Position numbers and translations under genes: made by a program. From contig OX597823.1 in NCBI GenBank assembly GCA_951406725.2, positions 33,604,001 through 33,668,000 of the forward strand: 64,000 bases of DNA, in the 5' to 3' direction. Shown here in pieces: positions 7,051-19,617 of this stretch (position 1 is its first letter; the number at the start of each line of letters is the position of its first letter). The DNA is from Octopus vulgaris (taxonomy: Eukaryota). A model generated the notes under the pieces. It had not been told where the DNA came from, made no database searches, and saw only the letters and a program-made list of their open reading frames with translations.

Positions 7051-7324
7051 AATTGCTGTAGAAAACTTCAAATTCTATAAGTGAAATAAATTCACTGATC
7101 TACAAAATTAGAAATATTGCATTTCTAAATCTCTGAGAGAAAGTTATACAGTAGCAGCACGATAAAGTGATGGTTTGTTGCCTACTTAATGTGTCATCCC
7201 CAGGAAAGGGAAGAATGTTACTACTAATTAGCCCCAAGAAACACCGTTTCTAGTTGGCTCCGTGACACAAGTGTTCTGTGTCCTTTTTCTCCTATCCTCT
7301 TATTTTAGGCTGTCTTTTTGATAC

Positions 7325-16346: not shown

Positions 16347-16883
16347 TTAACAGTTATCGCCAAGCTAATATGGCAGTCCATAAATAAAAGACTAAAGCTG
16401 CCATTGATTAACTCCAAGAGGCCATCGCCTCTAGCTAGCTATATGACACATGTGTCCATTATAACCTTCGAACAGGAGAGGTCAGCTGCTTCCCCTTGCT
16501 GGTCAGACATCTGCAGACATGTTTCAGGGTATCTGCCCTTTATCAATGCAGAGTAGCCAGACCCAGCAGGCGCCACTGCGACTGTGTGTTCGAAGGATTA
16601 TTTACCTAATTTCAGTGGAATACATCTACTGGTTTTCAAAAATAGAAATATTAAAATTTCTAAGTCTCTCTAAAGGAGACTACAGCAGCAGTACCGGAAG
16701 GTTATAATGGACACAGGTTCATGTGTCATATAGCTAGCTAGAGGTGATGGCCTCTTGGAGCTAATCAACGGCACCTTTAGTCTTTTATTTATGGACTGCC
16801 ATATTAGCTTGGTGATAACTGTTAATTTCCAGTACTGCTGCCGTAGTCTCCTTTAGAGAGACTTAGAAATTTTAATATTTCTA
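16347..16883 (-). mobile_element. Family-A HHR cassette: one ~355-bp monomer plus an inverted arm, in (TA)n
   Basis: 16347-16470 and 16641-16700 are reverse-complemented in 16698-16883. Degenerate HHR at 16511-16551 (ctgca-TTGATAA-aggg cagata ccct-GAAA-catg-TC-tgcag). Confidence 0.8.
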
Positions 16884-17810: not shown

Positions 17811-18356
17811 TCATTTAATGTTCGTCTTCTCATGCTTGCATGGGTCAACCAGCATTTGTTAAGGCAGATTTCCCACCTTCTTGTTGCTCACCCTCCTCAC
17901 CTGTGTTTCCAGGCAAAGTGATATGTCCTTTTGGACAGACATGTTTCCTTTTCTTCCATACAAGACTGGAATCAGACAACGTTGCTTATTTACAACCATC
18001 TCATGATGTCAAGACAAGGATACGCACAGGTACATGCAAGCACGTACACACACATATCTATATTTATGCATCTCTCTCTCTCTCTCTTTTTCTCCCTCTC
18101 TCCTCTCTCTCTCTTGATATATATATTCTTTTATTCTTTTATTTGTTTCAGTCATTTAACTGTGGCCATGCTAGAGCACCACCTTTAGTCAAACAAATCA
18201 ACCCCAGGACTTATTCTTTGTAAGCCTAGTACTTATTCTATCGGTCTCTTTTACCAAACCGCTTAGTTACGGGGATGTAAACACACCAGCATTGGTTGTC
18301 AAACGATGTTGGTGAGACAAACAGACACACAAACATATACACACACACATACATAC

Positions 18357-18400
<44 letters not shown>

Positions 18401-18403
<3 letters not shown>

Positions 18404-19150
18404 GGTTGTATACTGTCAATCTAACAAGAACGTGACAGTAGGGGGTACACCACCGTTATATAGCCCTAGGAGGCATCGAACGCCTCCTGACAGCTCGACA
18501 CATTTTATCCTGTGTCCTTATATACACATACGAAGGGGAGACAAACACCCCCAACTGCCGGAACTGCATCTAGGGACACCGTGTTTCAGGATCATCGGCC
18601 TAGAGTAGCAGACACCGGTCAGCTGGCGATGTCTGTCTCGACTTCGTATCTGTATATATCTATAGTCAGTGAAGTCTATTCACTGATTATCAAAATAAGA
18701 AATATTGAGTTTCTAAATCTCTCGTAGAGAGGTGTACGGTGGTGGAGCGATATAATGGTTGTATACTGTCAATCTAACAAGAACGTGACAGTAGGGGGTA
18801 CACCACCGTTATATAGCCCTAGGAGGCATCGAACGCCTCCTGACAGCTCGACACATTTTATCCTGTGTCCTTATATACACATACGAAGGGGAGACAAACA
18901 CCCCCAACTGCCGGAACTGCATCTAGGTGCAGTTCCGGCAGTTGGGGGTGTTTGTCTCCCTTCGTATGTGTATATAAGGACACAGGATAAAATGTGTCGA
19001 GCTGTCAGGAGGCGTTCGATGCCTCCTAGGGCTATATAACGGTGGTGTACCCCCTACTGTCACGTTCTTGTTAGATTGACAGTATACAACCATTATATCG
19101 CTCCACCACCGTACACCTCTCTACGAGAGATTTAGAAACTCAATATTTCT
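18401..19150 (-). mobile_element. Young family-A HHR cassette: 1.5 x 353-bp tandem plus ~224-bp fold-back, in (TA)n
   Basis: Identical direct repeat starting at 18401 and 18754. Palindrome 18698-19150 (one 1-nt indel seen). HHR-like motif at 18570-18603 (ctagg-CCGATGA-tcct-GAAA-cacggtg-TC-cctag). Confidence 0.85.
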
Positions 19151-19617
19151 ATATATATATATATATATATACATATATGGAGATATATATATGGAGGTGC
19201 AATCTATGTGGGTGTCTTTTCAGAACATTGTCTGGTTTAAAAAGCCACATTAGATGCCATGATGGCGCTAAGGTGTTGGTGCAGGAGGTGGTCAAACTGT
19301 ATAAGGAGTAGACCACCACCATGTATGTATGTAAGTATGCATGAATGTATCTCCAGCCAAATGTTTATGTCTTTCCTATAAAATATATGAAGCCATGCTT
19401 CAAATACTGACGTTGCCCCCCTCCCCTTTCTATTCCTTGGCAGCTTCTTGTGGCTATGGACACTTAAAATTGATAGCTATATAGAAGAGAGGGGAAAGCC
19501 TTTCTATTAGATAAACTGGCTGAATGCAAACAACAACAACAGCAACAAGAGAAAGGAATATACCTCAGCCTCCTGAGTAGTTATAGAGATGAAACCTAAT
19601 TTGATCTCCATCACTTC

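Follow-up and report, generated by a model that had tools for sequence, protein, structure and literature searches.

Structure of the insert

The window, i.e., the whole stretch of 64,000 nucleotides of Octopus vulgaris DNA analyzed here, contains an insert of 750 bp (18401-19150) within (AT)n, which consists of a 1.5-mer of a 363-nt repeat with a type I hammerhead (predicted) and an inverted arm. The insert is composed of this hammerhead repeat alone. Its features are as follows (positions are those of the window; signed numbers are relative to the predicted cleavage site).

18363..18400, no strand: (AT)n target tract, left flank; ATAT at 18397-18400 is common to tract and element
18401..18927, minus strand: long arm (P arm), 527 nt or 1.5 monomers; the outer end at 18401 is the fixed pLTR end (P), the inner end is at +1
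18569..18604, minus strand: predicted type I hammerhead-like motif, with TCTAGG/CCTAGA stem I, CCGATGA (U4C variant) and GAAA core and GUC triplet
18588..18598, minus strand: site of a 10-nt deletion, with the 5' strand and loop of stem II gone; ATGA microhomology
18922..18927, plus strand: apex TCTAGG, a self-complementary CTAG between G-T mismatches; the same apex is found in loci L138 and L139
18928..19150, plus strand: short inverted arm (T arm), from +7 to the fixed tail end (T) of the family, by sequence comparison with the family
19099..19150, plus strand: tail, about 55 nt past the pLTR end, on one arm only, by comparison with the family
19150..19170, no strand: (AT)n target tract, right flank, from the sequence

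A direct repeat of 178 nt on the minus strand (18397-18574 and 18750-18927; 100% identity, period 353) stops at 18927, so that the second unit ends exactly at +1 of the predicted cleavage site. This agrees with the original prediction of a 1.5-mer whose apex lies at that site. The near-perfect inverted arm of about 224 bp that had been described was also recovered: the arms at 18698-18921 and 18928-19150 differ only by one 1-nt homopolymer indel, 193 nt being perfect, and the apex context is TGCA-TCTAGG-TGCA. As had likewise been noted, (AT)n adjoins both outer ends; because this target is a microsatellite, a target-site duplication is unreadable at the insert.

The left flank (18120-18320) is a different interspersed repeat with a far higher copy number as judged by contig depth. 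Two old fragments of the tail region of the hammerhead repeat are present elsewhere in the window (7074-7152 and 16599-16670; 74-77% identity).

The repeat family and its fixed outer ends

An 18-mer near the 3' end of the repeat has 1991 exact matches in the genome, corresponding to a family of about 2,000 arms. In a search of the same genome, the best 40 of 1989 candidates were scored; copies other than that of the window are about 363 nt long and have an intact stem II (27 of the 29 other top locus records), and tandems of more than two units with intact motifs occur, such as L007. To this we added an unselected sample, in which the first 100 of the 1991 18-mer matches (chromosome C1) were taken and the loci of all but two of them retrieved, giving 69 loci.

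The 3' ends of the arms pile up at the pLTR end and the tail end, which lie about 55 nt apart. In the chromosome-1 sample, both outer ends are fixed in 22 head-to-head pairs, and each of these combines one P with one T end, i.e., the tail is one-sided in all of them; the remaining 47 of the 69 loci have a single arm or a more complex structure. The same form is seen in the window, where the long arm ends at P and the short arm within 3 nt of T, and young copies have the same outer end of the P arm as 18401. Partial tandems with an inverted 5'-truncated copy are found in the family, as are AT-rich or microsatellite targets. Head-to-head inverted arms are thus the standard form of this family. 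Given this standard form with fixed outer ends, the mirror-image structure of the window insert is not chance, and its palindrome is unlikely to be an artefact.

The predicted hammerhead and the stem II deletion

Read on the minus strand, 18604-18569 is TCTAGG-CCGATGA-TCCT-GAAA-CACGGTGTC^CCTAGA; the scissile bond is predicted to lie between 18575 and 18574, and stem III is short and near-palindromic. The motif of the original prediction is therefore present, although the string quoted for it sits at 18587-18560 and not at 18570-18603. The claim that the internal hammerhead has lost stem II was upheld: 27 of the 29 other top locus records have AGGA-CAATGA-TCCT, and the window copy lacks the 10 nt between the ATGA repeats. 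The seed used for stem II missed L018 and L020, of which L018 is nonetheless intact. A like 10-nt deletion was found at only one other genomic place, in one of two tandem units, and on the basis of this single counterpart the window deletion is read from its sequence as a sporadic microhomology event. We also considered the window motif as a normal minimal hammerhead without stem II and rejected this, as other copies carry stem II.

Across the family, CCGA-N-GA, GAAA and GUC were present in 122 motif reads (from fetched loci, with overlapping loci counted). The core is mostly the U4C variant, which is described in the accessible part of the source (PMC3088659) as lowering activity considerably in vitro but permitting viroid infectivity. 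In 15 hand-picked rows, 93.7% of the cells were paired in a three-helix fold, stem II being absent from the window copy. A double change from G-C to A-U in stem I occurs in six of these 15 rows, which form an older subfamily, and was probably one event. Searches of Rfam gave no hammerhead match at the gathering threshold for the window and none at E<=10 for 18300-19250, where the deleted copy alone was scanned; the best matches were miRNA models on the palindrome, which were dismissed as hairpin noise. Because Rfam gave no match, the prediction that the repeat carries a type I hammerhead is based on the motif, the stems and one compensatory pair.

Two further observations concern the fold. Stem III is palindromic or nearly so across subfamilies despite lengths of 8, 9 and 10 nt (L049:1306-1355, L071:3518-3569), and such conservation through length changes is as expected of a hammerhead that acts as a dimer. 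In addition, 18519-18561 can pair with 18615-18658 (44 nt, 80% complementary), which would prolong stem I into a long rod. The 5' ends of arms are densest on the 3' strand of this rod (+9..+28), which may reflect RT stalling.

Positions of arm ends relative to the predicted cleavage site

If cleavage had set the apex, apices across the family were predicted to form a sharp peak at the NUH site. Such a peak is absent. The inner ends of arms are scattered: only one of 93 unselected arm 5' ends falls within -2..+3 and three of 93 within about 10 nt of the cleavage site. Of the arms extending to +7, approximately 85% continue through the predicted cleavage site; the estimate is derived from 314 arms with a +7..+24 anchor and from 67 rows, read manually, of which 27 are ends in -29..+7 at about 9/16 capture. 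Loss of stem II had been offered as the reason why the internal copy was not cleaved. This explanation is not needed, as read-through is the rule and L015/L033 is a 1.5-mer that ends at +1 and whose internal ribozyme motif is intact.

Hairpin apices centred on CTAG were found three times at the cleavage site (window, L138 and L139), while a fourth cleavage-site match, L162, has a complex junction; none was found at the 5' strand of stem I. Five hairpin joins of the same kind occur at CCTAGG, which is free of the ribozyme, three of the five with terminal G-T, and L163, L165 and L166 are such CCTAGG joins with pLTR and tail ends. Since the density of arm ends around CCTAGG is about five times that around the cleavage site (15 versus 3 in the unselected sample), the count of apices at the cleavage site is, if anything, high for its region.

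For the fine-scale tally, every row that has T, G or C at -11 (274 in all) was read by eye. After 66 rows were dropped (indel shifts, internal deletions, duplicates, ambiguous -10 or ends beyond +28), 208 ends over 37 positions were kept. Ten of these ends are at +1 (nine without the window copy), against an average of 3.3 at 15 neighbouring positions. The local ratio at +1, 2.44, is the highest of the 37 positions, narrowly followed by 2.39 at +10, and the excess has p = 0.006 under Poisson and 0.053 with overdispersion. On the other hand, five other positions hold 10-14 ends each. Three of the +1 ends (L035, L036 and L037) are joined to unrelated flanks without CTAG homology. A self-cleaved 5' end, as claimed, is possible: +1 has the locally highest ratio (p about 0.05), but several positions match or exceed it in number.

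Taken together, the cleavage site is mostly not special for apex position. It is plausible that ribozyme-cut RNA is a template class in the family, a minor one at most, and circles or uncleaved multimers are likely to be the main templates. For the window join itself, the cut 5' end and the palindrome alone are about equally probable as the cause.

An autonomous Penelope-like element and a protein-coding variant in the same genome

The O. vulgaris genome also contains an intact element with a 781-aa RT and GIY-YIG frame, which has the same two kinds of end and lies in (AT)n; in L231, one arm carries the tail, and the inverted arm has the pLTR end. This Penelope-like element (PLE) is young and autonomous, with many near-identical 781-aa frames with RT and C-terminal GIY-YIG (L231-L250, e.g., G000:C5:1040000-1047500), a 40-nt tail, (AT)n targets and an apparently coding A-rich region upstream. 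No convincing sequence match between the hammerhead repeat and the autonomous PLE was found in 40 GIY-YIG loci of 148 matches (6136 first-look candidates).

Apart from this, a variant of the hammerhead repeat of about 2.1 kb was observed (L104:1002-5387, L169, L173, L174, L175 and L179; e.g., G000:C1:194341500-194348000). It has an ORF of 390-470 aa, often intact, with a CCHC knuckle and flanked by 14-nt duplications of the repeat, and it inserts in the same head-to-head form with a pLTR end and a tail end. No RT or endonuclease was seen in it. The ORF had no match in a word search and no solved structure, and in Pfam only sub-threshold zf-CCHC; in the Atlas, it is near ZCCHC3-like/zf-CCHC clusters (best score 0.93), and it is likely LINE ORF1-like. 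The ORF family is large (best 150 of 13087 candidates scored) and includes 1.8-2.0 kb tandem arrays, many without the hammerhead repeat; with a simple hammerhead descriptor, a motif was detected beside only one of 21 ORF loci. The 2.1-kb variant is possibly a protein-coding retrozyme or captured cargo.

Origin of the inverted arms

The original prediction was that a single cDNA, copied from a ribozyme-cut 1.5-mer with a dead internal ribozyme, snapped back on CTAG to prime the second strand and was joined to (AT)n by microhomology. A strand that folds back has no template beyond the first strand, and the pairs were compared with this limit at a tolerance of 6 nt. Fifteen of 23 unselected P/T pairs fit neither fold-back direction, eight fit with the T arm first and none with the P arm first; with looser mapping, 13 of 22 pairs fit neither. 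Among selected loci, neither direction fits in 7 of 13 young and 9 of 20 picked ones, and P-first copying is again absent from both sets. The window is outside the count of the pairing script since the deletion splits its long arm. By its arm lengths, it permits P-first fold-back only, followed by a chance stop at T.

The two arms of one insert are closely related and have sequence variants in common. Partner arms differ at 67 of 4786 sites, compared with 92 of 5858 between tandem units of one arm, and are closer to each other than to arms from elsewhere: the difference is 0.85 against 1.29% for the 11 young inserts and 2.0 against 3.43% for the 14 older ones. Since partner arms match each other as well as tandem units do, the two arms of an insert derive from a single template, and we found no support for two RNAs from different source copies. 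Such one-template arms suit equally a fold-back intermediate trimmed by the endonuclease and twin priming on a single RNA, circular or multimeric. The identity of the window arms was also considered as a sign of snap-back and is not discriminating, in that other young arms differ from the window arm by only 0-1 nt in 174. Between partner arms, the positions of the inner ends show only a weak correlation; they lie within 20 nt of each other in 8 of 22 pairs, with 4.8 expected (p = 0.07).

We consider it rather probable that the window insert is non-autonomous and was formed from two cDNAs, which were primed from two cut strands on one RNA and joined via TCTAGG. Twin priming is favoured because all 22 fixed-end pairs have one P and one T end, because 15 of 23 pairs fail the fold-back geometry, and because CTAG apices arose independently. 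The mover of the repeat is likely a Penelope-like enzyme; in the 40 loci compared, the repeat and the 781-aa element have no clear sequence in common. In detail, a Penelope-like RT/GIY-YIG protein would cut both (AT)n strands. One RT would start at the pLTR end and copy 527 nt, and a second would start at the tail end and copy about 230 nt of the same RNA. Both would stop at variable points, and the 3' ends of the cDNAs would pair by short homology, often at palindromes. In the window, the apex at 18922..18927 is likely the annealing site, where TCTAGG/TCTAGG would give four Watson-Crick pairs and two G-T. Repair would then retain the letters of one strand and complete the insert. The variants of this apex are as repair of a TCTAGG/TCTAGG heteroduplex would give: L139, which is independent, has the same apex with the other arm keeping +1, and L138, also independent, has the perfect palindrome TCTAGA. 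In vitro, a purified PLE protein cuts both target strands and extends them from two RNA sites that bound the tail, according to the accessible part of PMC11167929. In that work, no difference in start site was seen between the two strands, which does not account for the use of one P and one T end per pair.

More broadly, the family may be a genomic record of two-site priming by PLEs, in which the hammerhead-cut 5' end stopped both RTs in a few copies including that of the window, and the same machinery moves the 2.1-kb coding version. This wider proposal is tentative, and we hold it to be considerably less probable than twin priming at the window itself. If true, the window copy would amount to fossil evidence that a Penelope-type template was cleaved in vivo.

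A less probable explanation is that one long cDNA folds or switches onto itself, and that the resulting hairpin is trimmed by the endonuclease at the pLTR and tail sites before integration. Such trimming would rescue snap-back for the window copy and is in line with the single template of partner arms and with the recurrence of hairpin apices at palindromes. In accessible parts of previous reports, self-priming has been proposed from junction palindromes (PMC3846280) and tails have been ascribed to endonuclease resolution (PMC8557442). However, most junctions have 0-4 nt of homology and the reach of partner arms differs by up to hundreds of nt, so loops of up to several hundred nt would have to be primed mostly by such short homology. 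Moreover, the longer-reaching arm is the P arm in some pairs and the T arm in others, which a fixed staggered cut would not yield, and on target DNA in vitro, RT begins at the pLTR and tail sites (PMC11167929, accessible part).

Snap-back as first predicted is improbable, more so than fold-back with trimming. The precise end of the second unit at +1, the local enrichment there with or without the window copy, the +1 ends joined to unrelated flanks in L035, L036 and L037, and the geometry of the window, which permits copying of the long arm first, are in its favour. Nevertheless, it requires a chance stop no more than 3 nt from the tail site of the family, where the short arm ends, and long-arm-first copying was seen in none of 56 other head-to-head pairs (23 unselected, 13 young and 20 picked). 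For folding on CTAG, the loop would have to be 0-2 nt long, and the folding model does not allow this (a limit of the model and no measurement), whereas the duplex of two TCTAGG ends has -3.8 kcal/mol in that model. Its deleted stem II is unnecessary for read-through, and the scattered apices had already weakened it.

Finally, the near-identity of the window arms might point to an assembly or amplification fold-back artefact, and contigs from four public sequencing runs gave neither a piece across the stretch nor molecule ends, so that they are uninformative on the apex and on expression; no run recorded as RNA was listed for the sequence. Such an artefact is highly improbable, considering the unique sequence on both sides, the short arm ending at the family tail site, and diverged copies (84-99% identity to the reference) that keep the form with mutations between their arms.

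Comparison with known systems

The window element is a non-LTR retrozyme or non-autonomous PLE in the sense of previous reports, as far as these were accessible (PMC7229834; PMC4209133; bioRxiv 10.64898/2026.07.22.740005). Like retrozymes, whose units are 150-450 nt in the accessible parts of PMC7229834 and bioRxiv 10.64898/2026.07.22.740005, the family has a type I hammerhead (predicted) in a tandem unit of 363 nt, occurs as dispersed monomers and short tandems without RT, and shows long-range self-pairing around stem I. In contrast, the only complete core of the window copy is without stem II and the family core is mostly U4C; inverted arms and tails are not described for retrozymes in those parts of the two sources, and the family has a 2.1-kb variant with an ORF. 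By the definition of an active retrozyme, an intact hammerhead in each unit, L007 would be active and the window copy would not, with stem II deleted and the second unit truncated.

The likeness to EN+ PLEs includes the partial tandem, the adjacent inverted 5'-truncated copy, the one-sided tail, the (AT)n target and a hammerhead upstream of the RT start sites (PMC3846280, PMC8557442 and PMC11167929, accessible parts). Unlike these elements, the window repeat has no ORF with RT and GIY-YIG, nor does the ORF-bearing variant match an RT or GIY-YIG family; the tail is about 55 nt compared with 30-40 nt in PLEs, as given in the accessible text, and the copy statistics of the family argue against simple self-priming. 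In the PLE system, hammerhead cleavage was dispensable and no RNA-seq ends were at the cut (PMC11167929, accessible part). The origin of the inverted repeats and one-sided tails of PLEs is described as open in what was accessible of PMC8557442 and PMC11167929. Within the accessible literature, which included few subscription papers and others in part, none ascribes the inverted arms of PLEs to two-end priming or counts apices against the hammerhead site. The presence of about 2,000 short arms in one genome allows such counting: most inverted copies cannot have arisen by simple fold-back, a single template gave both arms, and at most a small share of the ends is set by cutting at the hammerhead site.

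In twin or dual priming of L1, both target strands prime RT and the cDNAs are joined head-to-head (PMC2837659, accessible part), as proposed here. The family differs from L1 in that it lacks poly(A) and uses two fixed start sites, and that its arms duplicate the same sequence without internal deletion; furthermore, the head-to-head form, a variant in L1 according to that source, is routine in this family. The single apex on the cleavage site is by itself of modest weight, and the outcome is a concrete, testable two-primer model together with a minimal substrate for it.
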